The notes: generated by a model not told the origin, from the sequence alone. DNA of 64,000 nt from a virus (IMGVR_UViG_3300044504_000033:10103-74102), one strand, 5' to 3'. Counted from the first letter of the stretch, positions 5,012 to 54,355 are shown. Program-made: numbers and translations.

Positions 5012-5665
5012 TTAAAAATTATCGTTTGGATTGAGACCTACAGGCACTACTGCAGGTACTACAGGTGCTGCTACAGGTGCTGCTACAGGTGCTGCTACAG
5101 GTGCTGCTACAGGTGCTGCTACTACAGGAATCTCTCCCATTGTCTGCTCGCCAGCAGGAGTATACGCGCCATCAGCTACTCCACTCTCTTCTGTCGGTTG
5201 AACCACGGTAGTCGTAGTCTCACCGAAGTCACTCTCGCGGGGTTTTGGTACATACAGAAGATGTGTGGTGACCTGGATGCCCATTGGAATTGTACTAATA
5301 CCCTTTGTGCCGTCTGGCTTTGTGTGCTCATACTGCCAGATACGTACATTGGCGATTGAGCCATGGCCGATCGTGTTTGGATCGATGGGATTCATACTAC
5401 CGTCAATGACCTCAACAAACGATGCAGGTGTGCCATCTGCTTTGGTAATATGTCGCTGAAGATTACACCGCCAGTAGGGTTTAGAGCCGTCATCAGGGAG
5501 TACTGCGCTGACCCTCATATTAAGCGCTTCCCATTCTTTCTTCTTTGCTGGGTCGGTAGTTCTGATCTGAACTTCCCATGTTGGATTCTTCTTATTAAAC
5601 TTGGCGTTGGGGTGCAATGGATCACACTTGACGTACCAAACTTCGCAGGCGTTTAAGATAGGCAT
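5012..5665 (-). CDS. single-stranded DNA-binding protein-like (phage gp2.5 / DUF2815-type) with (PVAA)n linker and C-terminal Phe
   Basis: 217 aa; N-terminal OB-fold-like region. A low-complexity AAPVAAPVAAPV linker is followed by acidic/aromatic terminus ...NPNDNF, as in T7 gp2.5-type SSBs. Sits in the replication module. Confidence 0.4.
   Translation of the reverse strand: MPILNACEVWYVKCDPLHPNAKFNKKNPTWEVQIRTTDPAKKKEWEALNMRVSAVLPDDGSKPYWRCNLQRHITKADGTPASFVEVIDGSMNPIDPNTIGHGSIANVRIWQYEHTKPDGTKGISTIPMGIQVTTHLLYVPKPRESDFGETTTTVVQPTEESGVADGAYTPAGEQTMGEIPVVAAPVAAPVAAPVAAPVAAPVVPAVVPVGLNPNDNF
5049..5122. repeat. 12-bp tandem repeat (caggtgctgcta)x~6 inside SSB-like gene, encodes (PVAA)n
   Basis: Direct reading of sequence 5041-5125. 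Confidence 0.85.
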
Positions 5666-5707
5666 TTTGGGTTTCCTAGATATGTTTTAAAAGTGGCCCT
5701 CTTTGAA

Positions 5708-5726
5708 GGGTTAATTTAACGGGGTC
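5708..5726. promoter_or_regulatory. class I conserved motif site 1 (GGGTTAATTTAACGGGGTC), 45 nt upstream of SSB-like gene
   Basis: One of five copies of the TTAATTTAACGGGGTC core at operon boundaries. Confidence 0.5.
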
Positions 5727-5738
5727 GCTTGAACAAGC

Positions 5739-7039: not shown

Positions 7040-9304
7040 TTATACAAAACAGAATTCAGATTCAAGGATTAAGCTTAAGTCAAGTGTGCCGATAGTTATT
7101 TCACTGATGTCTCCTTTTATATCTTTCATAATTGATGTTAATGGATCTGCCTCATACAATTCTACGAATGTTTCTCGTATAAGTTTGAACAAATCAGGCA
7201 TATCAGCTAACAGACAGCCGAATGAGTCATGTACAGTCGTAATAGCATAGTCGGCCTTATCAACAGTTATTGTCAAGTGAGCGGCGTCTAGACTATGTAT
7301 CACATTTGGTGAGGCTCCTTGTGCTTGTTTACGTTTTGATGGAACTACATCCTCGATGAAGCATACAAAGAGTTGTAGCGTGTTTGTATAATAACCTGTA
7401 CTTAAACGTGGTCCTGCCGGAGGCCCGTATTGCGTCCATATCTTCTTCGTCTTTCCTTGGACATAGTTCTGTACGACAGGGAAGTTTGTTATAGGTACAG
7501 TCCATGATAAGAATTCGCCAGCCATTTCAGCTTGTCGGCCAGCTTCCTCAAAAACCGCCAATAGCTGCATAGGTCGTTTGAGAGAACGTTTGCAAACATT
7601 ATACACCTCACGACCTAGATAAGCGCCCCAACGATGCTCCATAAATGATAGCTGGTCTACGCCATGTTTCTTTGCATCAAGTATCTGCTGCTCGCCCATT
7701 CCATATGCTGTCGAACCATACGAGATTGTCATAACATTTCGTTTCACAATCTTTCTACGGTACTTTGCATCTGTTATTCGTAACCAGAATAGGGGAGCCG
7801 CCTTTACCATAAGGTCTTCATGTGCTTGCTTAAACTTTCTTATCTCCTCCACTAAGGCTTTTCTGGTGTCACTACGTGGCTCTGACTCATTGATGTCCTT
7901 CTTGAACTCAATTAAGTTATCAATTACAGCTTCACAATCTTGTATCTCCTTTTTTGTGTATGCTGAGGCCACTTCTGATAGATAATCCCAGACATGGTCT
8001 GCCACATACTTGTAGAGGTCGCCAGGTAAATCCAGGGGTACGAGATTGACATAAGGAGCTGTTATTTCATCACGTGTTAACGCGGTGAGGTGCTGACTAC
8101 CATTGGTACTACCATCAATATACACTTCAAGGTGTGACTCGAACCCGTATTCATCATACTCAGGATTCTCTTCGGGTTTGAATAGGCGCATCATTTGTTG
8201 CCAGTTTCTGAACTTTCTCAGCTCTAGACAAGCAGCAAGGAATTGCCAGGGTTTGTCGGCTTTCATCCAACCTTGGTTGACCTTCGGTGACTCCGCGTAA
8301 GAAATAAAAATTTCCTCATTGTCCAGAACCCACTCATGTCTATCAAGTAAGGGTATCTTATCCGTCTTAGCATTATCTTCGCGTCCGGCATCACCGGCCC
8401 AGTTCGAGGCTATCGAGATAGTCAACCAAAAGAAACCTGCGCTGCCGATACGCTTCTTATCATTGCGTAATAATAAGCCCTTGGCTAAGTCAGAGCCTTG
8501 CTCATGGAGATAGGCTGAAGCACAATATTTACGTCCTCTGAAGTCATAATAGTAGAGATGATAAAAGGTTTTTCCTTTAAATCTTCCTGCGATGTCACTG
8601 ATGGCATGCGCTTCACGTAGTTTTGTTGCTCTCGCTTCAGAGTTTTGATTCTCCCATATTTCTGCAAATGCATCAGTTTTGTTACGCAAGGCCCATAATT
8701 GGATATCGTACAGGAGACTATTAATTTGCCATCCAACATGTTGTGCTTTATTTAAACAGCTGAACAGCATAGGATGCGAAGTTAAATTGACACTCTCGAT
8801 GACATCTTTGTTACCGGTCTTTATGATAGGGGTCCCGGTAATGTGTCTCGCAGTTGTCCAGTCGGCGTAAGGTGTTTCTGACGGAAGTTTCTCGATTTTA
8901 TCAGTGTTTATCTTAGCCCACAATTTGCAGATGGCATCATCATTGGTTACCTGGATGATATACGCACCATGTCCATTCGAACTCTTACCTAAAGTTACCT
9001 GAACCATACCTAACTCCTCAAATGTATAGAGGATAAAGGCACCTGTCTTTGCGGCTAATGATGAGTCTCTCTTAAGTTTAAATTTATTGCGAAGGTTGTG
9101 CCCTATTGCAGAAATAACTTCTGTTAGGTAAATTGTGTTCTTATTTGCACCGCGCTTAGCACGAGTGTAGAGATAGATGACCGCTATTGCATTATCGATG
9201 TAATCATCTACGTCTAAGTTTTTTAAGTAGCGCAAGGGACTTTGAGGTGCGAGTTCAGCCTGGCATCTGCTAGTTAATGATTTGATTAATAAGTGTTTCA
9301 TCAC
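7040..9304 (-). CDS. T7-like single-subunit DNA-dependent RNA polymerase (754 aa)
   Basis: YDFRGRKY...GLLLRNDKKRIGSAGFFWL (T7 DWRGRVY...GLLTLAKGKPIGKEGYYWL). Motif A YIDGSTNGSQHLTALTRD, motif B RKIVKRNVMTISYGSTAYG, motif C HDSFGCLLADMPDLF. Confidence 0.9.
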   Translation of the reverse strand: MMKHLLIKSLTSRCQAELAPQSPLRYLKNLDVDDYIDNAIAVIYLYTRAKRGANKNTIYLTEVISAIGHNLRNKFKLKRDSSLAAKTGAFILYTFEELGMVQVTLGKSSNGHGAYIIQVTNDDAICKLWAKINTDKIEKLPSETPYADWTTARHITGTPIIKTGNKDVIESVNLTSHPMLFSCLNKAQHVGWQINSLLYDIQLWALRNKTDAFAEIWENQNSEARATKLREAHAISDIAGRFKGKTFYHLYYYDFRGRKYCASAYLHEQGSDLAKGLLLRNDKKRIGSAGFFWLTISIASNWAGDAGREDNAKTDKIPLLDRHEWVLDNEEIFISYAESPKVNQGWMKADKPWQFLAACLELRKFRNWQQMMRLFKPEENPEYDEYGFESHLEVYIDGSTNGSQHLTALTRDEITAPYVNLVPLDLPGDLYKYVADHVWDYLSEVASAYTKKEIQDCEAVIDNLIEFKKDINESEPRSDTRKALVEEIRKFKQAHEDLMVKAAPLFWLRITDAKYRRKIVKRNVMTISYGSTAYGMGEQQILDAKKHGVDQLSFMEHRWGAYLGREVYNVCKRSLKRPMQLLAVFEEAGRQAEMAGEFLSWTVPITNFPVVQNYVQGKTKKIWTQYGPPAGPRLSTGYYTNTLQLFVCFIEDVVPSKRKQAQGASPNVIHSLDAAHLTITVDKADYAITTVHDSFGCLLADMPDLFKLIRETFVELYEADPLTSIMKDIKGDISEITIGTLDLSLILESEFCFV

Positions 9305-9476: not shown

Positions 9477-9525
9477 AAAAAAAAAAAAAATGGGACGGAG
9501 AAAGAAACCACTCCCGAAGGAGTGG
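9477..9525 (-). terminator. putative intrinsic terminator (minus strand): hairpin CCACTCC-TTCG-GGAGTGG, U/C-rich tract, then U14
   Basis: 7-bp stem at 9508-9525; A14 at 9477-9490 on plus strand. Lies between the regulatory/lysis block and the RNAP gene. Confidence 0.45.
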
Positions 9526-9538
9526 GGGTTGAGTTGTG

Positions 9539-10557: not shown

Positions 10558-10818
10558 TTAACGTACAGCTTTCAGGTGTGTTACCTTGGCTTTTACAAGA
10601 GTAATCCTGTATCCAAGTACTTTCCCGACTTTCATCAGGGTATCCAGACGTGGCTTTTTCGTGGTGCCATTCAGCCACAGATAGATGGTTTGTGGACTCA
10701 CCTCGGCGAGTTCCCCAAGGAGTGTGATGGAGCGATCCCCGATAAGATCAATAATCTCATCAAAGACATCGACTTCTTTTTCCTTGAGTACGGCTTTCTT
10801 CTTTTGTAGGGCTTTCAC
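10558..10818 (-). CDS. helix-turn-helix transcriptional regulator (Cro/CI/XRE-like)
   Basis: SITLLGELAEVSPQTIYLWLNGTTKKPRLDTLMKVGKVLG is an HTH pattern; 86 aa. Confidence 0.55.
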   Translation of the reverse strand: MKALQKKKAVLKEKEVDVFDEIIDLIGDRSITLLGELAEVSPQTIYLWLNGTTKKPRLDTLMKVGKVLGYRITLVKAKVTHLKAVR

Positions 10819-11710: not shown

Positions 11711-12037
11711 TTAACACGTTCTTTGGAAATGAGGAGAGTCTTTAAATCCCTCCCAAAACATTCCTGCTTGATTGAGTGGGTTGAGTGATTCCCAAAACTT
11801 ACCAAGCTTTTCAGGATAGCACAACTCACCGGATAATGTGAAATTGACATCTGCGGCACACTTCTTGATATGCATGCTATTCATAGTCTTAGAGCGACCC
11901 ATCCTAACATACATCTGTTGCATCTCGATAGGTCGCTGAACCTCTCCGAGACGTAACTGGTAACCTTCCTGGAGTGCATAAATGAGCAATGCCGTATAGT
12001 CTCTTGCAAAGGCTTCTTGGTGTTCGCCGAGTCGCAC
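11711..12037 (-). CDS. endolysin, L-alanyl-D-glutamate peptidase (peptidase M15 family)
   Basis: 108 aa; SMHIKKCAADV (SxHxxxxAxD) and distal DSPH zinc-ligand pattern as in T5-type M15 endolysins; preceded by a membrane protein. Confidence 0.6.
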   Translation of the reverse strand: MRLGEHQEAFARDYTALLIYALQEGYQLRLGEVQRPIEMQQMYVRMGRSKTMNSMHIKKCAADVNFTLSGELCYPEKLGKFWESLNPLNQAGMFWEGFKDSPHFQRTC

Positions 12038-12573
12038 TACACACCTCCCTTTTCTTTCATGGCATGTAGCAGTTTATCCTTATGTTGGGACGATCTACTG
12101 GAACCAAAGAAGAACTGGATGATTTGAGCCACAATGGTGCCAAGCAGAAACCCGAGAATGGTATCCGCGAAACGTACATTTGAGGCAGGGATGTCCAGGA
12201 ATGTTATACACCCAATATAAATAGTCGCCATAACAGACCAGAAGATCGCAAGATAGTAGATAAATCTTTTTGAGAATATATCGTCCTGTTCGAGAGCTGA
12301 GGTTTGCATAACCCGTGCTGATTGAGTATCTTTTAAATACATCTCATCCATCGCCGCTTGAAGCTTGTTATCTTCGAGTTGAAGTTTGAGAAGCTCCTCC
12401 TCATGATCCATTTCGTATTTCTTCAGTGTCACCAAATCCTCATTGCTGAGTTCCGGTTTATTGAGATCGACACCTGTCTTATCCTTCACCCAGTCTGTAC
12501 CTTTTGCTAAGGCGGCATTTCCTAACAAGGATATACCTTTGGACAAGAGTGTAGTGATTATTAATGGTAACAT
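12037..12573 (-). CDS. holin-like membrane protein
   Basis: 178 aa; two C-terminal TM helices (YYLAIFWSVMATIYIGCITFL, ILGFLLGTIVAQIIQFFFG); stop overlaps endolysin start. Confidence 0.35.
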   Translation of the reverse strand: MLPLIITTLLSKGISLLGNAALAKGTDWVKDKTGVDLNKPELSNEDLVTLKKYEMDHEEELLKLQLEDNKLQAAMDEMYLKDTQSARVMQTSALEQDDIFSKRFIYYLAIFWSVMATIYIGCITFLDIPASNVRFADTILGFLLGTIVAQIIQFFFGSSRSSQHKDKLLHAMKEKGGV

Positions 12574-12685
12574 GCTGTTTTCCCTTATTGATTATATATT
12601 TAAATTATATACATTATAACTTATGCCCTGATAGACCCTCTTAGATACTCCTCTTAGTACCATTTTAGTACCTCTATATATTAAA

Positions 12686-12720
12686 GGGAGGGACGGTCAG
12701 TAGATTAATTTAACGGGGTC
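12686..12720. promoter_or_regulatory. class I motif site 2 with upstream GGGAGGGACGGTC box (AGGGAGGGACGGTCAGTAGATTAATTTAACGGGGTC)
   Basis: Same composite element as at 48016-48052; upstream of the holin/endolysin operon. Confidence 0.5.
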
Positions 12721-12903
12721 GGCTAATGCTATCGTGCACAAACATTCATAAAAAGACACTGACTAAATAGTTGCATCCCTGCGTGCGCCCACCGTGGGTG
12801 TTTTTGGGCATGGCGAAGGTATGGCTACCCCTCCAAACGTCCGGGAGACATCGGGAGAGGCGGCCAGTTTCTCCAACCCGCGTCGGAAACCGCCTTGCAG
12901 CGG

Positions 12904-13830
12904 TCAGGCCACTGTAGTGTACTCATCAAGATCATGCATCAACCTTCTTGCCTCAAGAGTTGAATGGTAACTACTTGTAACTTCATCACCACCATTTATT
13001 CTCTTCAGTGCATACATATTGATAGTTCCATCTGGCTCAATCCGAATTTCCGAATTTGGGCGCCTGCTGTGGTTCACGTACCTGCCAAAGATTGTGCGAG
13101 TTCCATGCTGACGCGCAGGACCAAGATACTGACCCACTCCATAATCAATCTTGGAGAACACCCCAAGACCTTCGATTGGTGACGATTTCAGCTCAAATCT
13201 GTTCTTCAAATGAGAGGGTAATTCTCGTAATTTATTTGAAGAATTCATATGTTGAAGAGCTTGTGACTCATCAAGATTTATGCTGTCAAGAAATGTATTG
13301 TAGTCATTTCTATCATCTTCGACTGTGTACTCGATTTCAACCATGTGTGCGTCCTTGAACTTAAGGTATTCTTCGTAGGATACTGAAGTGAGGTAATCAC
13401 GAACATTACTCTCATCGACACCCTTACCTATAGCGTGGGCATTGATCCAGAGGGTATCCTTTACGATGTAAGCGGCACGCTTAATACCGGCTTTAGCGAT
13501 GACTGGATTATAACCTGCGAGATAAATGAGACCATCAAACTCGGTCCACATATATATCTCACCCGAAATCATGATACTTACATGATCAAAGTTGTGAAGC
13601 TCGCCTATTGCAAAGGTGCCTCCAGGAATTAATGTTTCGCGAACGTAGACATCTTCTCCGAAGTAATGTTTAACGGGGGCATCCACAGGAGGAAGCATGA
13701 GAATGTGTTTTTCAAGTTCAGTGATACGTTCAATCATTGATAGAGATTTGTCAGCTAAAATTTGGTTTATCTTTGGTATCGTAATCAAGGTGTTATTTTT
13801 AAGGGCTGAAAGACGTTTACTTGACATCAA
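12904..13830 (-). CDS. SET-domain protein (putative protein lysine methyltransferase) with N-terminal beta-barrel (cupin-like) region
   Basis: C-terminal GLGVFS...RYVNHSRRPN...GDEVTSSY reproduces the SET GxG / NHSCxPN / ELxxDY motif series. Confidence 0.6.
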   Translation of the reverse strand: MMSSKRLSALKNNTLITIPKINQILADKSLSMIERITELEKHILMLPPVDAPVKHYFGEDVYVRETLIPGGTFAIGELHNFDHVSIMISGEIYMWTEFDGLIYLAGYNPVIAKAGIKRAAYIVKDTLWINAHAIGKGVDESNVRDYLTSVSYEEYLKFKDAHMVEIEYTVEDDRNDYNTFLDSINLDESQALQHMNSSNKLRELPSHLKNRFELKSSPIEGLGVFSKIDYGVGQYLGPARQHGTRTIFGRYVNHSRRPNSEIRIEPDGTINMYALKRINGGDEVTSSYHSTLEARRLMHDLDEYTTVA

Positions 13831-13957: not shown

Positions 13958-14665
13958 TCATGACCTTACATCACAAACAAGAGTAGCTCCTGGATACGAC
14001 ATGTTCAAGCTACTCTTTAGGTAGTTACAAAGAAATTGCGTGCCCCAAGTTATTGAATTTGGGTATACATAAGAACATTTAAAAGAGCTAGCATCAAGCG
14101 GTTCTATACCGGCTTGGACATACCCAAACTGCTGAGAGAAGTTAAAGAATCCAACCGAGTAGAAAGCATTAACATTAGATGGATGGTAGTAAGTAGTATT
14201 GACAGTTGTATCTTGAATAGCTTCTAGTATATTCATATAATCAAAGCCACTATCAAAAACAATATCGCCATTTCCATTCTTAATACGCATTCCGTGTGTT
14301 TCACTATTAAGGTCCAATTCAGAAGTAGGGCAGTACACTGCGTATCCTATTAAATCTGTGGTGTTTGAAATGAAAGTACATCCAGTACACCCTGAGACCA
14401 CATCATAGATCATCCCTAAATAAGCGACCTTGGCTCCATATGCAGGCTTTATTACAACAATAGGAGCTTGTTGCAATGCTTTTGAGAACGTAAGAGTTAC
14501 CATGTAGAATGAGATATTCCAGGTACAAGTGCTGGAAGGTATTGAAGTATCGTATACAGGTGTTATGTTGCCTTTCTCAAGTAATGCATAGTTTGAATAA
14601 ATACTATCAATTTGTACCTTTCCTGAATCATTTAATATCTTTAGACCGAAATCAGCCATAAGCAA
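13958..14665 (-). CDS. tail fibre-associated / side fibre protein (hypothetical)
   Basis: 235 aa; Ser/Thr/Asn/Tyr-rich; directly downstream of the J-like fibre gene. Confidence 0.35.
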   Translation of the reverse strand: MLMADFGLKILNDSGKVQIDSIYSNYALLEKGNITPVYDTSIPSSTCTWNISFYMVTLTFSKALQQAPIVVIKPAYGAKVAYLGMIYDVVSGCTGCTFISNTTDLIGYAVYCPTSELDLNSETHGMRIKNGNGDIVFDSGFDYMNILEAIQDTTVNTTYYHPSNVNAFYSVGFFNFSQQFGYVQAGIEPLDASSFKCSYVYPNSITWGTQFLCNYLKSSLNMSYPGATLVCDVRS

Positions 14666-32414: not shown

Positions 32415-32507
32415 TACAATCTATCCTTCTTGAGCACAGCTCATTATGTTTGAGATACAATCTCGTGTAAAACAGGTGAGGCGTGTAATCAGGAGAAAAC
32501 ACACCTT

Positions 32508-32526
32508 GGGTTAATTTAACGGGGTC
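32508..32526. promoter_or_regulatory. class I motif site 3 (GGGTTAATTTAACGGGGTC) between MuF-RNAP gene and scaffold gene
   Basis: ~95 nt upstream of the scaffold start codon. Confidence 0.5.
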
Positions 32527-32529
32527 TGA

Positions 32530-35500
32530 CTAACCCACTCCGTACCATCCAAAATCATGTTTGAAACCTGTGGGAATTTCCTTAAGGATATCATCTCTCA
32601 TGAGAATGTCTGTATCTGTGAGTAGTTTTCCGTCAATACGTGAGCGGCCCACAACAGGAATCAGCCCTGTCTCAATCGCTTCATTTAAGTATCTGTCATA
32701 GATTTCACGAGGAAGACCTCTGGCAAGCATCTCATCAAGAGTCATCTTAATCACATTCTTCTCAAGGGCATTTGCATAAGACTGTCTCAAGGCTTGTCTT
32801 GCTTGCAGCATATCGGCAGCATTTGCGAAGAATGCATCATGGATAGTTGACGTGGGTATACCATTCTTAGAACCCCATAAGTGAAATTTCTTAACAAGGA
32901 CAGCATCATTAGAGTGGTTACCATTTACGGCAAATGCTGTACGTGCTTTAGTGGCATCCGCGATATCATTTATCTTCCCACTCTTATTAATAATAGCCTC
33001 CCAAGGAGATATTTCAGTCTTTTGAGGAACTTGGAGAATATTAGTTATCCATTTACCATCTCTATCTTTATAGACAAGTCTCGCTTCAAAGGTCTGTGTG
33101 AAGTTTTGCTCAATAATCTTTCCATCAAAGTTGACCCAGGGGACATTTGTCCAACTCTTAGGTAGCTTATTGGCAATCATGAACTCGATCTCGTTAAGGG
33201 TCTTCAACTGAGCAATCTCGACTTTGAGATATGTAGCACCTGTCCTTCTTGCCTCTGGGGATTTAACACCAAAGAGGATTTCAGATAGAGTGCTTTTCTT
33301 ATCCCACGCCGCAAACCGTCTGAGTATCTTCTCAGAGACAGGTTCACCGGCCTTAATACCTAGAATCTCACTGAGCGTATCAGAGAGTACATAACCCTTT
33401 CGTGAACCACCGAGTAGCTTAATCTTCGCAATAGATTTCCAATCAAATGCACTATTTGACGGTTTTGCGTTGATGAGAAACTCTTCCGCAAGTCGTCCGA
33501 AGAATTTTGTAAAGTGCTTAAGGATAGGCACTTGCTCAGCCAGGTGTTCACTCATAAGCTTAGCAATAGCTTTAAAGTCCTCTGGAGTGACCACCTTGTC
33601 GTAGTTTGCAGACATCTTTGTTACGAGGTCTTTAGTCTTTGAATCAAGGAAATAAAGTTGTTCCAAGATATCATCACCTGGATCTAGACCTTTATTGAAG
33701 ATATCCTTAACATTTTCTCTAAGGGCTCTCAGCTCAAGTGTAGTGTCAGGGTCAAACCTCTCATATCTTGCGATACGTGCAGATATCTCATTCAACACAG
33801 TATCTCTATCTGAAGCTCTAACAACAAGAGTGGCTGTGTCTTTATCAAGAATCTTCGCAAGTTTGCCCTCCACATTAAGGATACCTGTACGTTCACCCGC
33901 GCCATAGAAAGTCACCATATTCTGTGCTTTAGCGGCCTTTCTTAAGTCTTTTTCAGTGAGTCCCAGCTTCTCATTAAGCTTCTTGAAACGAGGGTCATTG
34001 TAGGTTGCAGCAGCAATCTCGTCGTACAGACGTTTCTTTTGTGTGGTGGGAATTACATTACTAAGTTCTGCGAGTTGCTTATTACGTGTTGTCAGAGCAA
34101 TAATTTGGGCACCTGACGACGACGCATCCTGTTCAAGCGCGAGTGCCGTCTTATACTTATTCATCAATGTTAAGTTTGTGTAATCCCCTCTCAGATGAGC
34201 GTCAATCTTGGCAGATTCGAGAGCGAACCTGTAGAACTTACCAAGCTCCTCCCCCTCAATCATCGATGCTACAGGACTGTCGAGAATAGCTCGGATATCC
34301 CCAGGCTTACCTCTCAACATATGATTACCAATCTTCACCATCTCAGAGCGCCACTTGTCAGCTATTTTTTGTCGACCCGTGAAACTGAGAGAATTGTATG
34401 GCCCTTCGAAGGTATCATTCAGACCACCAAGGAAAGCACCTATCTGATCTTGAAGATTAAGGTAACCAGTCTCACCCAGTACCTTGCTGGCTTCCGTACT
34501 GAGAAATGGTCTGAATGTTTCACCTGATTGAGGGCTTATTAGACCCCTGTCATAGATACGTGCACGGTGATCGATAAATGGGTGATTACTGAACGTACTA
34601 TTCTTTGTACGTAACCATTCCATAGCCTTAAAGCGCTCATAAGAATCCCCACGAGATGTTATGTAATGACGGTACTCGTTTAGATTATTATAGTACTTAG
34701 CCTTTCCTTTATCATCCTGGAAGTCCAATAATTTCATCGTGAAATCGTAAAAGTCATCATCAACTCTGTATTTGGTCTTTGAAGCCCAGTTAAGTGCATT
34801 CACCATATCAGCATCAATAAAACCTTCGGGAAAATCACTGAAACTTGAAGTCGAGGTGATTGGAATACGAGTATCTTCGTAGCCAAGGAGACCACGGTCA
34901 ATGAAGTATGTCTTGTATCCTTTACGAAACACGAGACGATTCTCATCACTTACCACACTAACACGCAACCCTAATTCAACCTTACGAGTCAACTGGGAGT
35001 ATTTCTGAATCCTCGGGTCGGTTATCCTCAGGTTATATGAGAAGGTATCGTAGTAAGGGCCAAATAGAGCACCACTCATGCGACTTTTCATTCGACGCTT
35101 TTGAACACCATAGGTCTCAAGATTAAAGAACTGATTATTTGAGTTAAGAATATCAGAACCTAGAGTAAACCATTGGCGTCGTGTTCCATTCATGCTGGAC
35201 ATATTGTATAAATCACGTCCTAACATTGCAGCTAATTGGTCGAAGTCAGGAGAATCAGCGAGACTGAGTCTATGCGCAAATCGTAAGTAGAATTGTTGGA
35301 GGTCTTGGTCAGATAGCCTGAGTCTGAGCTTGACTGGGAGATGCTTGTCAAAAGTATCACGCAACTCACGCGCTATCTTCGGAGCTACACTATCTTCCCA
35401 TTTATTCTTCTCATAGATATTCTTGATGAAGTTGTCATGTAAGTCTTGTAATTGAACGGGACCAAGAACAGGGTCTATGTAGTTATCTTGTTTGAGTTTT

Positions 35501-37143
35501 TTGAGTAAGTCAGAGTCACGCCTCAGAGTCGTCTCAATGAAGTCGGAAGTGTTCATCACATCATACTTAATTTGGGCCTGTGACACTGCCTTAAAGTTAA
35601 TCCAAGGAGCTGGGTTCTCACGATATCTTGTAAAAAGTATCCGCAAATTATCTGCAACCACAGCTCTCTCGTTCACACTCATCTTACCCTCAAGACTGGT
35701 CATGAATGTCTTGATGAACTCTTTATCAGCAGTCTTAAGGACAGCACTCTCTTCAGTTAGTCTGAGGTTATTTGCAAGAGCACCTGGAGATGGTTGAAAG
35801 AGACGAGCATCATCATACTTCCCCGTCACGGGGTTGAATACCATTTGGTCTTCCCGAGGCAGTGTCTGGACAACGCGTCGTTTAGCTTGTCGCTTAGTCC
35901 CTATCAGGTTGCCCCGATAGTTAGTGAGAGATAGTGTACCGTCAAGCTCTCGCGTCTGAAGTATGTAATAGTCTTTCAGCGTCTGTCTCATCTTAGCGTC
36001 AGTAAAGAAGTCTTCAGGGGACGCAGCACCAAGTTGCATTGCATTTAGCTTATCCTTAGCTACAGCAAACTTATGAGTATTTCCTGGAGTCGTGTAAGAA
36101 GAGTCAGATAACTGGCGTAGTTCTCGAATACCTATCGAGTTACCCTCTGCATTGGTAAATTTAGAAATTGGCATCATACCACCTCTAAATAACTCAAGCT
36201 TCTGATAGTCTCCAAGATGTCTTAATTGAGTTGGCTTGTCTTGGCGCATCAGCCAATCGTTATAGGTCTCACGGAGTGGTGTCTGACCGTCATAAAATGC
36301 CTTCTGCTTATCGCTCAAACGACTCAGGTTACGACGTCTAACATGAGCAACACCTTCAAGATTTGATAAGTCATTCCATGCTTTAACGACAGGAGTAGTT
36401 GTCGAGCGGCAACCCCAGTGTGCCGGTGGCAGATGCTCGGTGTCCCCGATGGCGTAGATATGGGCGTCGCGGTGGATACAGATGTCCGTCGTGTAGGAGT
36501 CCATGATGGACACGTATTGCCAGCCGAGGAGAGCGGGTTCGTTGGCTGCGTAGACCTCATGGTCAGCTTGGGCATATATGCTTGTGATTGCAGTAGTTGT
36601 GAGCGTTCTAGCTCGGTTTCGGGTGATCCTATGGATCTTACCCTTACGAACATCCAAAGCGATTTGTTCTAAGCTGTCACCCTTAGCGACACCCTTTCTT
36701 ATTACAGTCTCTATAAGTTTCCTCTCGTTAACAGCGAGACCTGCCCAGCCTTGTGACAAAGTTCTATCCTTGTATAAGGGCTTGACGAGAACTAAATCTT
36801 CAGCTACACGTCGTGAGGGTCTCTGTGTCTTCCAGATACGCCCTATCGAATTCTCTATAGTCTGGTACGTGTATGACACTTGGTCTGCGACGAAACCTAG
36901 AAGAGAAGTCTTGCTTACATTATAAGCTTCCGTGATAGAGTTTTGTATCTCAACATCAATGGCGTCTCTCAGCAGTCTGAAGCCTTTATCAGACTTACTT
37001 GCATTGCGAATGAGGGCGTCGACACGAAGCCGATGGCCGTCAAAAACAACTTCTACCTTACCGTGTAGTCTACGTTCGTAGAGCTTTATCATCCCTGCTC
37101 TGTCGACTGCTCGGTCATAAATTTGTGTGTTACTGTTAATCAT
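32530..37143 (-). CDS. fusion protein: N-terminal MuF / SPP1 gp7-like minor head (portal-associated) domain + C-terminal T7-like single-subunit RNA polymerase domain (putative virion RNAP)
   Basis: MuF signature LLGWQYVSIMDSYTTDICIHRDAHIYAIGD...LPPAHWGCRSTTTPV near residue 200-250. RNAP motif A ALALEQDASSSGAQIIALTTRN, motif B RKAAKAQNMVTFYGAGERTG, motif C STIHDAFFANAADMLQARQALR in the last 500 aa. Gene lies between portal and scaffold as SPP1 gp7 does. Confidence 0.75.
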   Translation of the reverse strand: MINSNTQIYDRAVDRAGMIKLYERRLHGKVEVVFDGHRLRVDALIRNASKSDKGFRLLRDAIDVEIQNSITEAYNVSKTSLLGFVADQVSYTYQTIENSIGRIWKTQRPSRRVAEDLVLVKPLYKDRTLSQGWAGLAVNERKLIETVIRKGVAKGDSLEQIALDVRKGKIHRITRNRARTLTTTAITSIYAQADHEVYAANEPALLGWQYVSIMDSYTTDICIHRDAHIYAIGDTEHLPPAHWGCRSTTTPVVKAWNDLSNLEGVAHVRRRNLSRLSDKQKAFYDGQTPLRETYNDWLMRQDKPTQLRHLGDYQKLELFRGGMMPISKFTNAEGNSIGIRELRQLSDSSYTTPGNTHKFAVAKDKLNAMQLGAASPEDFFTDAKMRQTLKDYYILQTRELDGTLSLTNYRGNLIGTKRQAKRRVVQTLPREDQMVFNPVTGKYDDARLFQPSPGALANNLRLTEESAVLKTADKEFIKTFMTSLEGKMSVNERAVVADNLRILFTRYRENPAPWINFKAVSQAQIKYDVMNTSDFIETTLRRDSDLLKKLKQDNYIDPVLGPVQLQDLHDNFIKNIYEKNKWEDSVAPKIARELRDTFDKHLPVKLRLRLSDQDLQQFYLRFAHRLSLADSPDFDQLAAMLGRDLYNMSSMNGTRRQWFTLGSDILNSNNQFFNLETYGVQKRRMKSRMSGALFGPYYDTFSYNLRITDPRIQKYSQLTRKVELGLRVSVVSDENRLVFRKGYKTYFIDRGLLGYEDTRIPITSTSSFSDFPEGFIDADMVNALNWASKTKYRVDDDFYDFTMKLLDFQDDKGKAKYYNNLNEYRHYITSRGDSYERFKAMEWLRTKNSTFSNHPFIDHRARIYDRGLISPQSGETFRPFLSTEASKVLGETGYLNLQDQIGAFLGGLNDTFEGPYNSLSFTGRQKIADKWRSEMVKIGNHMLRGKPGDIRAILDSPVASMIEGEELGKFYRFALESAKIDAHLRGDYTNLTLMNKYKTALALEQDASSSGAQIIALTTRNKQLAELSNVIPTTQKKRLYDEIAAATYNDPRFKKLNEKLGLTEKDLRKAAKAQNMVTFYGAGERTGILNVEGKLAKILDKDTATLVVRASDRDTVLNEISARIARYERFDPDTTLELRALRENVKDIFNKGLDPGDDILEQLYFLDSKTKDLVTKMSANYDKVVTPEDFKAIAKLMSEHLAEQVPILKHFTKFFGRLAEEFLINAKPSNSAFDWKSIAKIKLLGGSRKGYVLSDTLSEILGIKAGEPVSEKILRRFAAWDKKSTLSEILFGVKSPEARRTGATYLKVEIAQLKTLNEIEFMIANKLPKSWTNVPWVNFDGKIIEQNFTQTFEARLVYKDRDGKWITNILQVPQKTEISPWEAIINKSGKINDIADATKARTAFAVNGNHSNDAVLVKKFHLWGSKNGIPTSTIHDAFFANAADMLQARQALRQSYANALEKNVIKMTLDEMLARGLPREIYDRYLNEAIETGLIPVVGRSRIDGKLLTDTDILMRDDILKEIPTGFKHDFGWYGVG

Positions 37144-42935: not shown

Positions 42936-44633
42936 CTAAAAGGTTGTGTATACACCGGCGTAACCGGGTTCTACATAAGAGTCAGAACAGTAAGTATTCA
43001 TATGAACAATACCGGCTTCTGATAAGATTACATTTTCCGATGAAATCACCGTAGGCTTGATTGAAATATTCTCAGTCGAAGCTATGGTCTCATTGAATAT
43101 CGTGTTAAACAGCATCGAGAGTACTTCTGATAAGATTACATTTTCCGATGAAATCACTGTAGGCTTGATTGAGATATTCTCAGTCGAAGCTATGGTCTCA
43201 TTGAATATCGTATTAAACAGCATTGAGAGTACTTCTGATAAGATTACATTTTCTGATGAAATCACCGTAGGCTTGATTGAAATATTCTCAGTCGAAGCTA
43301 TGGTCTCATTGAATATCGTGTTAAACAGCATCGAGAGTACTTCTGATAAGGTTGTGGTATCAGCTCTCCCTGTGGTCACATCTAGCGCAATAGTCTCCAG
43401 TGTTACGGCAAGTTCTGAAAGACTTTTTCCTACGTGCGCGTATTGTTGATCATCAATACCTCCAAGGAAGTCATCAAGGACATCCAATTGGTCAAGGATA
43501 TCTTGAGCGGTCACCACGCCTGTGAACACTTCTTCTGATGTTGTGATCACATCTGATGGACTTATATTGATGGTCAGACCGAGCAGCTCACTCACGATTG
43601 CGATATCAGTGGTATACTTTCCATTGACCTTCAAAAGGGCTTCTGTAAGAGTGCTTGCATCAATGACACCCTTATCATTACTGAAAGTCATAGTGTCACT
43701 GTGGCTACAACTTTCGATAAACTGCTTGGTGGTCGTCAAAGCAACTACATCGCTATTATTGAAGACATCCTCGAGATATGTGCTGCAAATAAACTCAAGA
43801 GTCTCCACAACACTACCTGTATCAAGGAGCATCTTACCAATCTGCGCATACTGTTGGTCATCAATACCTCCGAGGAAGTCATCAAGGGCATTAATCTGCT
43901 CATTGAAGTTCTTCATCAGGGATAATGTAGCGGTATCTGAAGCACTCAAGGACTCCTCTTGAACACCACGAAGAAATTCCAGACTTAAACTCTCAGTGAC
44001 TTGTGCGTTATCCTCTAGGTACTTTCCGGATACCATGATAAGAGCTTCCACCAAAGTGCCTGTGTCAAGCACTCCGGCTATGTTATCAAAGACCACAGTC
44101 TCGCTTGAAGAGGTTAGTTCAAGGAAGCTCTTTGTGGTGCTGAGAGCTACAAGATCACTATTGCTGAACGCGTCTTCAAGGTACTTATCACAGACCATTT
44201 CAAGAAGTTCCTGAGATGTGGTAGTGTCCAGCACCATCTTACCAATATGTGCGTATTGTTGGTCATCAATACCTCCTAGGAAGTCATCAAGGGCATCAAT
44301 CTGCTCAAGGAAAGCAAGCTGCACATCGAAAGACAGCTCATCAGAAACAGTATGTGCGTCTTGGGCTTGTTTTGAGAAGGTAAATAATAGTGTGTCAAGA
44401 ACGATTGGGTATTCAGCAAGCGCTTTAAAGAATGCTGGGTATGCGGTGGATAAGAAAGAGTTGCCATTCACATTGACATTTGCGATCTTACCCGCCTCAT
44501 TTCCGCTTAAGGTTGCATTTGAGGTATTAGTCACAAGTGTAGATACAGGACCTACTTTACTGCTCAGCGTAGGTGTATTTATTCTTGCGGTCAACTTTTC
44601 AATCGTGGTTAAAATCTCTTTCTTATCAGCCAT
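42936..44633 (-). CDS. repeat-rich fibre-like protein (565 aa) with three 36-aa tandem repeats and three ~135-aa repeats
   Basis: SEVLSMLFNTIFNETIASTENISIKPTVISSENVIL x3; LDDFLGGIDDQQYA(H/Q)IGK x3. Confidence 0.4.
   Translation of the reverse strand: MADKKEILTTIEKLTARINTPTLSSKVGPVSTLVTNTSNATLSGNEAGKIANVNVNGNSFLSTAYPAFFKALAEYPIVLDTLLFTFSKQAQDAHTVSDELSFDVQLAFLEQIDALDDFLGGIDDQQYAHIGKMVLDTTTSQELLEMVCDKYLEDAFSNSDLVALSTTKSFLELTSSSETVVFDNIAGVLDTGTLVEALIMVSGKYLEDNAQVTESLSLEFLRGVQEESLSASDTATLSLMKNFNEQINALDDFLGGIDDQQYAQIGKMLLDTGSVVETLEFICSTYLEDVFNNSDVVALTTTKQFIESCSHSDTMTFSNDKGVIDASTLTEALLKVNGKYTTDIAIVSELLGLTINISPSDVITTSEEVFTGVVTAQDILDQLDVLDDFLGGIDDQQYAHVGKSLSELAVTLETIALDVTTGRADTTTLSEVLSMLFNTIFNETIASTENISIKPTVISSENVILSEVLSMLFNTIFNETIASTENISIKPTVISSENVILSEVLSMLFNTIFNETIASTENISIKPTVISSENVILSEAGIVHMNTYCSDSYVEPGYAGVYTTF
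43018..43341. repeat. 108-bp tandem repeat x3 (near-identical copies) within the 565-aa gene
   Basis: Units start at 43018, 43126, 43234; 2-4 mismatches per unit. Confidence 0.9.
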
Positions 44634-46831: not shown

Positions 46832-47189
46832 GCACCATATAAGCTACCCGTTCCAATGAGGCTTTCTGCGCTTTAGAGAATGTCATTCCCTCATCTTCAT
46901 TGAGTAACACAAATATTGTCTTATCAGGGCGTCGGTGGCTGTCATCGATAGCCTCGGCTATGGCGTATACACCGAGTAACTTTGGAGTAATCACATAGAG
47001 GCAATAGTCAGAGATAGTCCGCTCCAGCACTTCACGTTCTTGTGCTTCCGAGTTCCAATTGTCAACAACCGGATTGAAAAAGGAGACACCTTCAATATTG
47101 GAATTGGTGAGTTCATCACGCCATTTGCTACCGTTACATGTACCACCCATGAATACTTTAATCATCTTCGTATACCTCTTCGATATCAT
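46752..47189 (-). CDS. nucleoside 2-deoxyribosyltransferase-like protein (hypothetical)
   Basis: 145 aa; N-terminal IKVFMGGTCNGSKWRDEL resembles the KIYLAGP...W pocket of that fold. Could alternatively be the small terminase. Confidence 0.3.
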   Translation of the reverse strand: MISKRYTKMIKVFMGGTCNGSKWRDELTNSNIEGVSFFNPVVDNWNSEAQEREVLERTISDYCLYVITPKLLGVYAIAEAIDDSHRRPDKTIFVLLNEDEGMTFSKAQKASLERVAYMVHVNGGKSFHNLATLQDFFKHKMSNGH

Positions 47190-47610
47190 CCTCGTGGCTA
47201 CTGAGGAGAAATGTTGAATTATCCTTATGAAGGTTTATTACCATGGGCATTCGCTTTTTCTCTTCGACGAGAATAGTGTTTGGCACTTTAGCATAACCGT
47301 ATGAAAGGAGATTTGCTGACACCTTCTCGATTTGTGAGAGGACACCTATGTGAGACATTGAGCTGTACCTGATAGTTTTTGACTCAATTGGTTCACCTAG
47401 GTCATCAAGGTAAACTGTGACGCTACCACTATCTCTCAACTCACACCAAAAAGTATCTTCGGCACATAAACGATTATAGAGCAACACCAATCTTTCGATA
47501 GGGTCAAACCCTAAATCACGCAATCTTTCGGCACTCTTACTAAACCCTGCTCGTCGCACTGAAGGGGCTAATGCGTAAGGCATCATTTTACTTATATCTG
47601 TATCTGCCAT
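47158..47610 (-). CDS. putative terminase small subunit (by position)
   Basis: 150 aa acidic C-terminus, first gene after a long structured leader, upstream of the large terminase. Confidence 0.3.
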   Translation of the reverse strand: MADTDISKMMPYALAPSVRRAGFSKSAERLRDLGFDPIERLVLLYNRLCAEDTFWCELRDSGSVTVYLDDLGEPIESKTIRYSSMSHIGVLSQIEKVSANLLSYGYAKVPNTILVEEKKRMPMVINLHKDNSTFLLSSHEDDIEEVYEDD

Positions 47611-48015
47611 ATATGGAACCTCGGCTGGTCTGTATGTTGTGCTAAATGCAAATAAGAAAAATCAGAAACTAAATTTCCCTCCGGGTACCTTGAAGTACTC
47701 GCGTAGTCCACGAAGTATTAAAAGTGTCTTCCCACTTAGCTCGAATGCCCCTCCGAGTTAACTTTCCACGGTTCAGCTTCATGGTGAATGTTTCATGATT
47801 TCTCGGCATGATGATCTTGAGAGGGCTTATTGGTTAATCTAGGTTATAATGATTATAATTATTGACTGATTAACCTCTTGAGAGACCCTCTGGGTACCTC
47901 TGAGGTACCCTCTATAGGTTTATCTCTTATACTTAATCACTATAACTGATACCATCTCAGTACCATCTTAGTACCCTTAAAGGTACCCCCTTAGGTTACC
48001 CCTTAGGTTATATTT
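47611..48015. promoter_or_regulatory. repeat-rich noncoding region (~400 bp): inverted repeat GGTTAATC/GATTAACC flanking AT-rich core, CTTGAGAG direct repeats, GGGTACC-N5-GGTACCC palindrome, TAGTACC/TAGGTTA repeats
   Basis: No ORF; repeats read directly; candidate packaging (pac/cos) or origin region adjacent to the terminase genes. Confidence 0.4.
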
Positions 48016-48052
48016 AAGGGAGGGACGGTCTCTAGGTTAATTTAACGGGGTC
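48016..48052. promoter_or_regulatory. class I motif site 4 with upstream GGGAGGGACGGTC box
   Basis: AAGGGAGGGACGGTCTCTAGGTTAATTTAACGGGGTC; upstream of the terminase region. Confidence 0.5.
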
Positions 48053-48089
48053 TCTGAATCGAATATGCGACATCCGTGTTAGTAATTTT

Positions 48090-48554
48090 TCAAACGGCTT
48101 CCAGCTGGTACAGCAACGTGGATTTCAACCACCCGCGGTGTGCCTCTTGTTCGGTGTCGTACTGTCCCACGTATGCCGTTTTATTACCGTGCTTTTTTAT
48201 TTGCGCGATCCACTTCCCCCTTCGTTTGCACCAGTAAATGCCTTTGTATCTTGAGCTTGAATTGTACTCAGCTTCATAGAGAGTGATCCTCTCGTCTAAG
48301 TCGATTTCTTTAAGATTTGCGAGGCTTATATTGCGGGGGTTGCCATCGATAAAGGTCACATCTAGAAAGCCATCAGGTTCATTATGGAGCAGCCATACGA
48401 TACGATGTAATTGCCTCAAACGACCCTCCCAGTAGACCACAGGCAGTCCCTCTTCGCCCAACAGGACACGGACCTCTGAGTTATACATAAGTAGCTTATC
48501 ACCCTCCATCCTGAATACTTCACGAATTTCTTTTACTAACAGTATGTCCTGCAT
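48090..48554 (-). CDS. HNH homing endonuclease with AP2 DNA-binding domain
   Basis: FIDGNPRNISLANL (HNH_3-type) plus YKGIYWCKRRGKWIAQIKKHGNKTAYVGQYDTEQEAHRGW (AP2-like). Confidence 0.65.
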   Translation of the reverse strand: MQDILLVKEIREVFRMEGDKLLMYNSEVRVLLGEEGLPVVYWEGRLRQLHRIVWLLHNEPDGFLDVTFIDGNPRNISLANLKEIDLDERITLYEAEYNSSSRYKGIYWCKRRGKWIAQIKKHGNKTAYVGQYDTEQEAHRGWLKSTLLYQLEAV

Positions 48555-48746: not shown

Positions 48747-48811
48747 AAAAAAAAAAAAAATAAGGGACACACTTCCAACACCACCCCGAAGGATGACGTT
48801 GGAAGTGTGTC
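48747..48811 (-). terminator. strong intrinsic terminator (minus strand): 14-bp perfect stem GACACACTTCCAAC/GTTGGAAGTGTGTC, 18-nt loop containing CCCCGAAGG, then CCTTA + U14
   Basis: Stem 48766-48779 / 48798-48811; A14 at 48747-48760 on plus strand. Confidence 0.6.
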
Positions 48812-49507: not shown

Positions 49508-49629
49508 AAAGACGGCTAACCGTCAATCAACGCGTTCAGCCGCGTGGCTTTGTTTAGTTTCATTAGGTCTTTCATGTTGTTCTCCCTGGTTAATTTAGTG
49601 TTGCGGCTGCCTGCTGTTTATCGCAGCGG

Positions 49630-50194: not shown

Positions 50195-50237
50195 ACAGTC
50201 CGGCTCGTTCCTACCAGCTCATGCGGCTGCTTATTGG

Positions 50238-50251
50238 TAGGTTATGTGCGG
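50238..50251. promoter_or_regulatory. class II motif copy (TAGGTTATGTGCGG)
   Basis: Member of the CC(G/T)GTTAG(C/A)TCTA(G/C)GTTAT(G/A)YG family at gene junctions. Confidence 0.35.
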
Positions 50252-51469: not shown

Positions 51470-51706
51470 CTAATTTATCGCAGACCTATATCCAGACTCA
51501 TAGTTAACTGCATCAACTTCGTTGGCGCTGTACCTGTCAGGCACAACAACACTCCCTGGCTGTGTTGAAGTTACATATCCTGGGTCTTTACTGCCGTCGT
51601 GGTAACCCTCAACAAAAGCGGTGGCAGTTACGTCGGGTCGCATAACAGTGCGCTCGTTCTGACCTGCTAGGTCGGAGGGCGCTTTAATTTCAGCGGTTCC
51701 GGTCAT
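51470..51706 (-). CDS. hypothetical protein, pair C1 (shared 5' leader)
   Basis: Leader GCTGTGCCGACTGCGGCCCGAAAC(A/C)ACTGGAGACAATTAAGATG is identical to that of 52329-52550. Confidence 0.4.
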   Translation of the reverse strand: MTGTAEIKAPSDLAGQNERTVMRPDVTATAFVEGYHDGSKDPGYVTSTQPGSVVVPDRYSANEVDAVNYESGYRSAIN

Positions 51707-52048
51707 CTTAATTGTCTCCAGTTGTTTCGGGCCGCAGTCGGCACAGCTTTGTAGTTATATTACCGCGTACACTCTCGTTCATGCTCATATTCATCGTCAG
51801 CAATTTCCGCAAAATAAGCCTCCCGCTTTTCTTCGTCCGTCATTTCATCGTCATCATCAATTAACCCATACAGAATATCTTTATCCATTTCCAATCACTC
51901 ACAAGTGAAATAGTATAACAATAAAATCAATCCGACCGCGAACCATCGGTACATTAACCACCCCGTGGGCGGCGGCTTATTTAGGTGGTTTCGTTCATTA
52001 CGATCTCCTTGCGGTGTGATATGAAGCCTGCGGGCTTTCTAATACCTG

Positions 52049-52338: not shown

Positions 52339-52550
52339 TATTCAAATTCGATATTCACTGGGCATGAGTACTCAACGAAATCGAATGAGTCCGTCGCTTC
52401 TGGGTCTGCGTCATGCTCAAGCCTAAGAACCTCTACGTCCCCATACTTTACCCACCGATACCCCCACTCTTCCGCATCGTAGTCACGCCGCAGGATTTCC
52501 TTATCGCGTATTTGTGTCACCTTTAGTATCCCGCTTTTTCCGATTGCCAT
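52329..52550 (-). CDS. hypothetical protein, pair C2 (shared 5' leader)
   Basis: See 51470-51706. Confidence 0.4.
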   Translation of the reverse strand: MAIGKSGILKVTQIRDKEILRRDYDAEEWGYRWVKYGDVEVLRLEHDADPEATDSFDFVEYSCPVNIEFEYCA

Positions 52551-52633
52551 CTTAATTGTCTCCAGTGGTTTCGGGCCGCAGTCGGCACAGCTCGACGTTA
52601 TCTGTTAATCAAGGCGGACGGTTGCGCCCTTCA

Positions 52634-53372: not shown

Positions 53373-53475
53373 AATCTTCTACTCCGTAGGCACAATGCCT
53401 AACACTAAAATTAACACGGACTATCTGCCGCGCTACTTCTTCTAACCAGCGTACAGCAGCCGGTTATTGATGACA

Positions 53476-54058: not shown

Positions 54059-54091
54059 TATACCCGCCTGATTCGAAAACCTACTCATGTG
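54059..54091. repeat. direct repeat R_b copy 1 (TATACCCGCCTGATTCGAAAACCTACTCATGTG)
   Basis: Second copy at 54356-54388 (31/33 identical over 33 bp, similarity continues ~15 bp further). Confidence 0.8.
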
Positions 54092-54138
54092 AAGAGTCCT
54101 GCCGACCTCGTGCCTCGGCTGCTTATTGATGGGTTAGG

Positions 54139-54279: not shown

Positions 54280-54355
54280 TACTTAACATTTCTGCTTCCG
54301 TTCAACTCGCAACCTAACACTAAAATAAACTCGGACTGGCATACTGCGGCATTTT

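Follow-up and report, generated by a model that had tools for sequence, protein, structure and literature searches.

A conserved 20–21 bp operon-boundary motif as a candidate promoter in an uncultured siphovirus encoding two single-subunit RNA polymerases

The window (the whole stretch of 64,000 nt that was analysed, IMGVR_UViG_3300044504_000033:10103-74102) originates from a siphovirus that is kin to Naomviridae and EBPR siphovirus 1. In the greedy gene map of the window, all of the 90 genes are found on the minus strand, referred to below as the gene direction, and the intergenic share amounts to 8.6%. The protein set includes DNA polymerase A, portal, large terminase subunit, major capsid protein, scaffold and a 2251-aa tape measure protein. 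A megablast search of 8 kb of the window against GenBank phages returned no match, which suggests that the phage has no close cultured relative at the DNA level. The nearest relative by protein is EBPR siphovirus 1 (60% identity on the MuF::RNAP fusion described below), and roseophages DSS3_VP1 and DSS3_PM1 (Naomviridae) show 31–34% protein identity to the window. DSS3_VP1 has its gene order in common with the window, and it also encodes both of the RNA polymerases (RNAPs) that are found here:

7040-9304, minus strand, T7-like single-subunit RNA polymerase, 754 aa (PF00940, E-value 2.7e-65; T7 RNAP, E-value 1e-38)
32530-37143, minus strand, MuF::RNAP fusion, 1537 aa (PF04233 and PF00940; phrog_241 and phrog_414)

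The genome-encoded single-subunit RNAP that a T7-family promoter requires is present in the form of the 754-aa enzyme, with a second RNAP domain in the MuF fusion. The N-terminal region of the 754-aa RNAP is about 165 aa shorter than that of T7 RNAP, and the enzyme is 34% identical to the RNAP of DSS3_VP1. In the fusion protein, an N-terminal MuF head-morphogenesis domain is followed by a very divergent single-subunit RNAP domain, the alignment of which with the 754-aa RNAP is limited to catalytic motifs A and C; a search with the fusion sequence against the PDB gave no match. The fusion is presumably packaged in the virion. According to a 2017 survey, N4-like virion RNAP modules have been reported only in N4-like phages and prophages (PMC5512222). 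Homologs of the fusion are encoded by EBPR siphovirus 1, where the gene is interrupted by an HNH gene, and by DSS3_VP1, where the product is annotated merely as 'head morphogenesis'.

The plus-strand 16-mer TTAATTTAACGGGGTC occurs without mismatches at 5711-5726, 12705-12720, 32511-32526 and 48037-48052, and a fifth copy with two mismatches (TTAATTCAACGGGGTT on the plus strand) is located at 63333-63348. None of 100 dinucleotide-preserving shuffles contained five matches (mean, 0.44). In the gene direction, the motif reads (A)GACCCCGTTAAATTAACCC(T/A) or, alternatively, (A)GACCCCGTTAAATTAACC(C/T)(T/A), a block of 20–21 bp, and its copies are as follows:

5707-5727, minus strand, copy 1, C-GACCCCGTTAAATTAACCC-T, 43 nt upstream of gene 5012-5665 (ortholog of DSS3_VP1 gp072)
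12701-12721, minus strand, copy 2, C-GACCCCGTTAAATTAATCT-A, in which T replaces the first C of the 3' CCC
32507-32527, minus strand, copy 3, 3 nt past the MuF::RNAP stop codon and 94 nt upstream of the scaffold gene
48033-48053, minus strand, copy 4, downstream of HNH gene 48090-48554 and 424 nt upstream of gene 47158-47610
63329-63349, minus strand, copy 5, variant C-AACCCCGTTGAATTAACCT-A, 104 nt upstream of gene 62510-63226

All five copies share one orientation. Copy 2 is flanked by the tail-fibre-like gene 12904-13830, which precedes it, and by gene 12037-12573, which starts 129 nt further downstream; gene 47158-47610, downstream of copy 4, heads the terminase operon. Four copies are wholly intergenic, residing in large gaps of 73, 330, 115 and 479 nt, and the fifth overlaps the final 16 nt of ORF 63333-63683. 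The five copies, their placement between genes or at gene 3' ends, and their spacing of 45–430 nt ahead of operons, all of which had been proposed in the original prediction, were thus recovered, with measured distances to the next minus-strand start codon of 43, 129, 94, 424 and 104 nt for copies 1 to 5. The motif is not equally common in coding regions: none was found inside the coding regions of the window, and few of about 174 sites of the relatives are so located. Of the operon labels given earlier, scaffold, major capsid protein and terminase were confirmed by domain/PHROG searches, as were the portal and both RNA polymerases, whereas 'SSB' and 'lysis cassette' received no Pfam or PHROG support.

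The HNH gene 48090-48554 (minus strand) is situated directly upstream of copy 4, and the HNH genes of the window and of EBPR siphovirus 1 are probably mobile insertions. Partial motif halves that lack the GACCCCG part (AAATTAACC, AATTTAACC, AATTAAACC and AAATCAACCC) were noticed in other intergenic gaps, in the gene direction, at 49588-49596, ~53790, ~54600 and ~39985 (minus strand); these could be weak promoters or chance matches.

Two of the copies are accompanied by a plus-strand box, GGGAGGGACGGTC, exact at 12686-12698 and 48018-48030. The box had been regarded as a separate upstream element, a view that had to be abandoned, since the genes all occupy the minus strand, which places the box downstream of the motif in the gene direction. 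By alignment (CCCTCCC-TTAAATATAACCTA against CCCCGTTAAAT-TAACCTA), the box is the C-rich beginning of a second, degenerate copy of the motif. At both boxed sites, a perfect and a degenerate copy stand in tandem, one of the sites being adjoined by short repeats:

12671-12698, minus strand, box with AT-rich segment, degenerate second copy, GACCGTCCCTCCC-TTTAATATATAGAGG, downstream of copy 2
48001-48030, minus strand, box with degenerate second copy, GACCGTCCCTCCC-TTAAATATAACCTAAGG, downstream of copy 4
47887-48010, minus strand, short arrays of 10–12 bp repeats (units, e.g., TAACCTAAGGGG and TACTGAGATGG; TRF periods 10, 11 and 12)

A similar, weaker repeat series at about 12615-12680 is visible by eye only, as TRF found nothing at the 12.6 kb site. 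In relatives, the boxed form is CCCCC-TTTATTTAATCCC, and many of them have the boxed copy 80–130 nt upstream of a second perfect copy. At the T7 primary replication origin, an AT-rich region succeeds tandem phage promoters. The boxed sites, where an AT-rich region containing short repeats comes after a perfect and a degenerate copy, resemble this origin in layout alone; in contrast to T7, the window has two such modules, which precede different operons.

An exact scan detected the 16-mer in at least 117 IMG/VR loci (at least 134 copies), and the match extends to ...AACC in 117 of the 134 copies among the matches listed. Further copies in the same IMG/VR loci vary only at the 5' end, (G/A)A(C/A)CCC. 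When the proteins of the window were compared by tblastn with 1.03 Mb of motif-bearing IMG/VR loci, the identity of the relatives to the window among the matches listed was 56–67% for the T7-like RNAP, 55–74% for MuF::RNAP, 61–77% for the major capsid protein, 49–58% for DNA polymerase, and 37–51% for the scaffold protein. The 16-mer is exact despite protein identities of 37–77%; thus, this non-coding sequence is more conserved than any of the proteins, and the motif is the most conserved sequence of these genomes.

The junctions at which the motif is found are conserved as well. The best-conserved position is that between MuF::RNAP and scaffold (at least 78 sites), followed by the regions upstream of the homologs of gene 5012-5665 (at least 25 sites), gene 47158-47610, ahead of the terminase (at least 11 sites), and gene 62510-63226 (at least 5 sites). 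Among the IMG/VR matches listed, the sites at junctions equivalent to those of the window are co-oriented with the genes. Crude ORF strand calls around the sites of the relatives, made in search of divergent or convergent junctions, yielded 'opposite' calls that turned out to be shadow ORFs. In 144 motif–gene pairs among the matches listed, at least 29 nt always separate the motif 3' end from the following ATG, and this spacing is 29–30 nt at 20 of the 25 sites preceding the homolog of gene 5012-5665, whereas the upstream stop codon is as close as 1–5 nt at 22 sites. Such asymmetry would be expected of a promoter, downstream of which space is needed for a leader with a ribosome-binding site. 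Stem-loops whose sequence varies among relatives follow the motif at the scaffold junction; the T7 capsid gene has a comparable leader. In some relatives, a hairpin overlaps the motif 5' end.

EBPR siphovirus 1 carries diverged gene-direction copies (CCGTTNNNTTAACC) at syntenic gaps, namely TCCGTTGAATTAACC among small genes, ACCGTTACATTAACC ahead of the terminase and ACCGTTATTTTAACC after the fusion gene; the variant of copy 5, TTGAATTAACC, also occurs there among small genes. These diverged copies define CCGTT and TTAACC as the constant parts of the motif. Searching bacterial genomes for the 19-mer produced one match, a phage fragment binned in a MAG, and a host or prophage element was rejected on this basis. 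A scan of metagenome contigs for a conserved leader, aimed at contigs that open at a transcript start, returned a single 74.8-kb DNA contig. In the MAG contig (QNFP01000100.1, referred to as L122), which belongs to a relative of the phage, the perfect motif and the box are inverted relative to the terminase operon: a perfect copy at 7400-7418 (plus strand) and a copy with degenerate flanks at 7626-7645 (minus strand), the latter in the gene direction and 226 nt upstream, face each other across about 200 nt of AT-rich repeats. It is the only convergent motif pair among 119 sequences checked, and the inverted module may reflect either a true inversion or faulty assembly.

The information profile of 65 non-redundant sites displays a sharp block of 20–21 bp, from A-4 to the T/A after CCC, and no conservation outside it. 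In the gene direction, CCC(T/A) comes after the AT-rich core TTAA; on the opposite strand, the motif reads TAGGGTTAATTTAAC|GGGGTCT, in which a G-run succeeds an AT-rich segment. A palindrome, GTTAAATTAAC (GTTAA-A-TTAAC), occupies the inner 11 bp, and the conserved flanks are asymmetric, with GACCCC on one side and CCC on the other.

Several types of signal can be set aside. As single-stranded DNA, the motif remains unfolded (MFE, −0.1 to −3.6 kcal/mol; z, −1.5 to +1.1 versus shuffles), and no stem-loop with a T-run, as in an intrinsic terminator, is present at any copy. According to the folding energies versus shuffles, a DNA hairpin of the N4 type (5–7 bp stem, 3-nt loop, centred near −11) is likewise absent at the motif, which dismisses an N4-type hairpin promoter. 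Sites resembling sigma-70 promoters, with −35 and −10 hexamers 16–18 bp apart, are at chance level in the window (37 versus 35.8 expected and 33 versus 31.6), with none at the motifs, and a pac or cos site is at odds with five dispersed copies. A terminator, pause site or RNA-processing site between operons would suit the operon-boundary position, sometimes 1–5 nt past a stop codon, as well as the hairpin over the motif 5' end in some relatives. Nevertheless, we consider such a function very improbable, as the motif is unfolded, none of the five copies was called terminator-like, classic hairpin-plus-T-run elements exist separately in the phage, the Rfam covariance-model scan of the whole window returned no match, and the fixed spacing of 29–30 nt to the ATG would be unexpected.

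The remaining evidence points to a promoter, which, taken over both polymerases and both polarities, we regard as the probable function of the motif. T7-family promoters are about 23 bp long (−17 to +6), with a binding region from −17 to −5 and an initiation region from −4 to +6 (PMC4496689), and the block of 20–21 bp has the size of such promoters (PMC4496689). Five same-strand copies in 8.6% of intergenic space correspond to the T7-family layout. Similar to T7, T3 and SP6 promoters, the motif is phage-specific, about 20 bp long, sharply bounded, of one orientation and placed before operons, including that of the capsid genes; it can extend into the 3' end of the preceding gene, occurs in tandem copies, and is accompanied by a T7-like RNAP gene. 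On the other hand, it shows no sequence similarity to these promoters beyond a chance AATTAACCCT that also occurs in the T3 promoter, it has no G start in the gene direction (TTAA|CCC), and the RNAP of the window phage has an N-terminus about 165 aa shorter. T7 and T3 promoters differ despite about 82% identity of their RNAPs. The present motif is identical across RNAPs that are 56–67% identical, so its conservation exceeds the pattern of the T7 group, which counts against the promoter model. The kind of signal is expected and its sequence is new; a full-text literature search for the motif on either strand found no paper.

The promoter of the cyanophage Syn5 RNAP, a small (~780 aa), marine, T7-like enzyme, is ATTGGGCACCCGTAA. 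It is also short, and its CCCGTAA resembles CCCCGTTAAA of the window motif, but Syn5 transcription starts directly after CCCGTAA, whereas the window motif continues with another conserved 10 bp (TTAACCC...).

For comparison, a repeated motif was identified in DSS3_VP1, with 13 gene-direction copies of ATAGGGTGCGTTAAAGAGGGGGA, some of them in tandem, and the consensus (A/G)ATAGG(G/T)(T/G)(G/A)CGTTAAAG(A/C)(G/A)GGGG:

2242, 2333, 6580, 7408, 19202, 19237, 19326, 29396, 45926, 46393, 46551, 55098 and 59196, gene direction, copies of the repeated motif in DSS3_VP1 (L119/L120)

By its sequence, this motif would plainly represent a T7/T3-like promoter family. It was found here; the Naomviridae paper (PMC8323127) contains no description of it, and no promoter analysis or transcription scheme. 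One of the copies precedes gp072, orthologous to gene 5012-5665 (34% identity, E-value 2e-25), by about 50 nt, and thus two distant members of the group mark the same gene. DSS3_VP1 resembles the window in architecture, in encoding both RNAPs, in tandem copies, in the motif before the ortholog of gene 5012-5665, and in CGTTAAA, which is present in both motifs. Unlike the window motif, that of DSS3_VP1 has a clear T7/T3-like TTAAAG-GGGG start in the gene direction, and no copy is found at its MuF::RNAP–scaffold junction. A weight matrix of the DSS3_VP1 motif run over both strands of the window gave negative scores at the motif sites, so no sequence homology between the promoters of the two phages is claimed.

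The polarity of the motif requires separate consideration. T7-family enzymes initiate with G. In the 65-site profile, the 6 nt after the gene-direction CCC(T/A) contain neither a conserved G nor a conserved purine at a fixed offset, which counts against a gene-direction promoter. An AT-rich segment followed by a purine start is absent in this direction and present only on the opposite strand (TTTAAC|GGGG). This G-run geometry and the better ungapped match of the opposite strand to the DSS3_VP1 promoter (13/22, against 9/20 in the gene direction, counted by hand) also count against the gene direction. The motif might therefore be a plus-strand T7-type promoter, TAGGGTTAATTTAAC|GGGGTCT, with a G start, that directs transcription against the genes and yields antisense RNAs or replication primers, the box being a second upstream start, TTTAA|GGGAGGG; we judge both this promoter and this role of the box to be improbable. 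Besides the order of the AT-rich segment and the G-run, the resemblance of the box to GGGAGA speaks for such a promoter, as do the hand-counted DSS3_VP1 match, the 5'-terminal hairpin GGGUCUCUA...UAGAGACCC with which the RNA of some relatives would open, the perfect copy of L122, which points this way towards the terminase operon, and the tandem promoters with AT-rich repeats that recall the T7 primary origin. Against it, plus-strand genes are absent, and only antisense RNA would be made across about 170 sites of the relatives listed; the DSS3_VP1 matrix scores are negative, and both the spacing asymmetry and the synteny with the DSS3_VP1 promoter before the ortholog of gene 5012-5665 favour the gene direction. 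Of the two orientations originally left side by side, it is accordingly the C-rich one that runs with the genes, whereas the plus-strand TTTAAC|GGGG start would give antisense RNA only. It is similarly doubtful that the T7-like RNAP starts at the non-coding G-run, or that the boxed modules work either way, to produce antisense or primer RNAs at operon boundaries. If this were true, the sites would serve as a polymerase-primed origin or for antisense control, and mRNA synthesis would proceed via other signals.

The inner 11-bp palindrome and the inversion in L122 count against the main model, too, and both would be in line with an operon-boundary binding site of another phage DNA-binding protein. 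The tandem and degenerate copies with 10–12 bp repeats, the conservation above that usual for RNAP promoters, and the presence of an HTH_3 protein in the window also agree with such a site. At 11 bp, the palindrome is short for the operator of a dimeric HTH protein. The asymmetry of the conserved flanks and the single orientation of all copies also speak against a site of this type; moreover, the variants of EBPR siphovirus 1 alter only the left half of the palindrome, breaking it while keeping CCGTT and TTAACC, and no sigma-70 promoter accompanies the motif for a regulator to act upon. A binding site of this kind is hence held to be unlikely, and the same low probability is assigned to its candidate binders, the Cro/CI-type HTH protein 10558-10818 or, at the boxed modules with their many repeats, a protein of replication or packaging. 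The 86-aa Cro/CI-type helix-turn-helix protein itself (10558-10818, minus strand; HTH_3, E-value 4e-6) is a possible transcription regulator of the phage.

As to the enzyme that might read a gene-direction promoter, phage N4 offers a point of comparison, as N4 and the window phage both combine an injected single-subunit RNAP with a second, small T7-like RNAP. Early promoters of the N4 virion RNAP are DNA hairpins with conservation from −17 to +1, clustered at the first-injected end of the genome (PMC4496689). In contrast, the motif of the window has no stable hairpin, and its copies are dispersed over the genome. It has been argued for N4 that dispersed late-gene sites suit a newly made polymerase rather than a few injected molecules (PMC4496689). 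By this logic, motif sites before late structural and replication genes throughout the genome favour the newly made T7-like enzyme over MuF::RNAP as the reader, a preference that rests on analogy only.

The gene-direction promoter could instead be read by the virion-delivered MuF::RNAP (32530-37143), alone or beside the T7-like enzyme, which we consider unlikely, if somewhat less so than the antisense and protein-site alternatives. The fusion co-occurs with the motif in the relatives listed, the best-conserved site directly follows the fusion gene, the polymerase domain is too divergent for its promoter type to be predicted, and the late region yielded no further repeated motif. However, sites before late structural and replication genes are unexpected for few first-acting injected molecules (PMC4496689). 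The T7-like RNAP gene, the expected early target, does not directly follow the motif in the window or in any of the loci of relatives listed, and has a different conserved element ahead of it. Furthermore, reading by MuF::RNAP would leave the T7-like enzyme without a recognisable promoter.

The reading that we favour, with modest confidence, is that of a gene-direction promoter for the T7-like RNAP of the phage. While the motif, its statistics, its orientation, its conservation in synteny and the lack of other kinds of signal were established directly, we infer the binding of an RNAP at the motif, the identity of this RNAP, and the start point. Of the promoter claim made in the original prediction, the two RNAPs, the sharp block, the single orientation, the operon boundaries and the conserved junctions were confirmed, so that the claim is partly supported, with a putative reader enzyme and a putative polarity of initiation. 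According to the proposed scheme, a double-stranded promoter would fire in the gene direction, i.e., along the minus strand of the window, with the 754-aa T7-like non-virion polymerase as its most likely reader by analogy. Transcription would probably start at or within about 10 nt of the block 3' end, for instance at the last A of TTAA, which would also be a purine start, or at the first purine after CCC. The predicted transcription units would comprise one right-end gene (62510-63226), the block from terminase through portal to MuF::RNAP, the genes for scaffold, capsid and tail, the block that follows the tail fibre gene, and the stretch from gene 5012-5665 through DNA polymerase.

The motif thereby provides a testable promoter candidate for a large uncultured environmental siphovirus family with two single-subunit RNAPs. 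If read by the 754-aa enzyme, the two would form a new, small polymerase–promoter pair, possibly with an unusual non-G start, that might serve orthogonal expression or in vitro transcription. Since it is the most conserved sequence in these genomes, the motif is also a sensitive marker with which such phages can be found and oriented in metagenomes, and their genomes split into transcription units. What makes it interesting is its extreme conservation and peculiar initiation region, together with its occurrence in a two-polymerase phage family that has hardly been studied.

A second class of conserved non-coding elements, in the gene direction, consists of a GC hairpin (often with a TTCG loop), a CT-rich stretch and a T-run of 7–27 nt:

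9477-9538, minus strand, hairpin-plus-T-run element
48747-48811, minus strand, hairpin-plus-T-run element
62227-62255, minus strand, hairpin-plus-T-run element
L025, L031, L041, L053, L058, L088, L096, L099, L104, and L118 at 14030-14085, hairpin-plus-T-run elements in relatives

The window and every relative listed have such an element ahead of the T7-like RNAP gene; the T-run reaches about 35 nt in EBPR siphovirus 1, and only 13–15 nt separate the element from the start codon in some relatives. It could be a terminator or a promoter of the injected polymerase. The sequence TATCTCGA, present in two regions downstream of these elements, is not significant (5 versus 2.3 expected). A lone SP6/T7-like GTAGGTCACTATCTCGAG at 62188-62205 (minus strand) is situated between the hairpin-plus-T-run element and the first small gene (start, 62150), and the SP6-like TAGGTCACTATCTCGAG has one occurrence only in the window.

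The leader of the scaffold gene contains adjacent hairpins with 5-bp stems and TGT loops, GAGATTGTATCTC and GAGCTGTGCTC, at 32452-32464 and 32431-32443 (minus strand). The corresponding hairpin in relatives is NNGATTGTATCNN or GAGTTGTACTC in many IMG/VR loci and GTAAGTTGTACTTAC in DSS3_VP1 (L119, 25683-25697), and it may act as a translational operator. The TGT-loop hairpins were rejected as a second promoter class, as they are not enriched outside the scaffold leader.

Gaps between small genes share (A/C)YCAATAAGCAGCCG-like sequences beside hairpins at 50224-50238, 51970-51984, 53457-53471 and 54116-54130 (minus strand), as well as TTATTTTAGTGTTAGG at 53398-53413 and 54313-54328 (minus strand). 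Their counts are marginally above chance (4 versus 1.8 and 3 versus 0.9 expected, respectively), and neither was found in the loci of the relatives, which do not cover this region. Two pairs of 45–46 nt repeats, 51704-51748 with 52548-52592 (98% identical) and 54059-54104 with 54356-54401 (93% identical), are located directly upstream of small genes and look like duplicated leaders or ribosome-binding regions. Finally, gene 42936-44633, coding for a 565-aa protein of unknown function, harbors three near-identical repeats 108 nt apart (97–98%; 43016-43353) and three further repeats about 405 nt apart (43411-44312).
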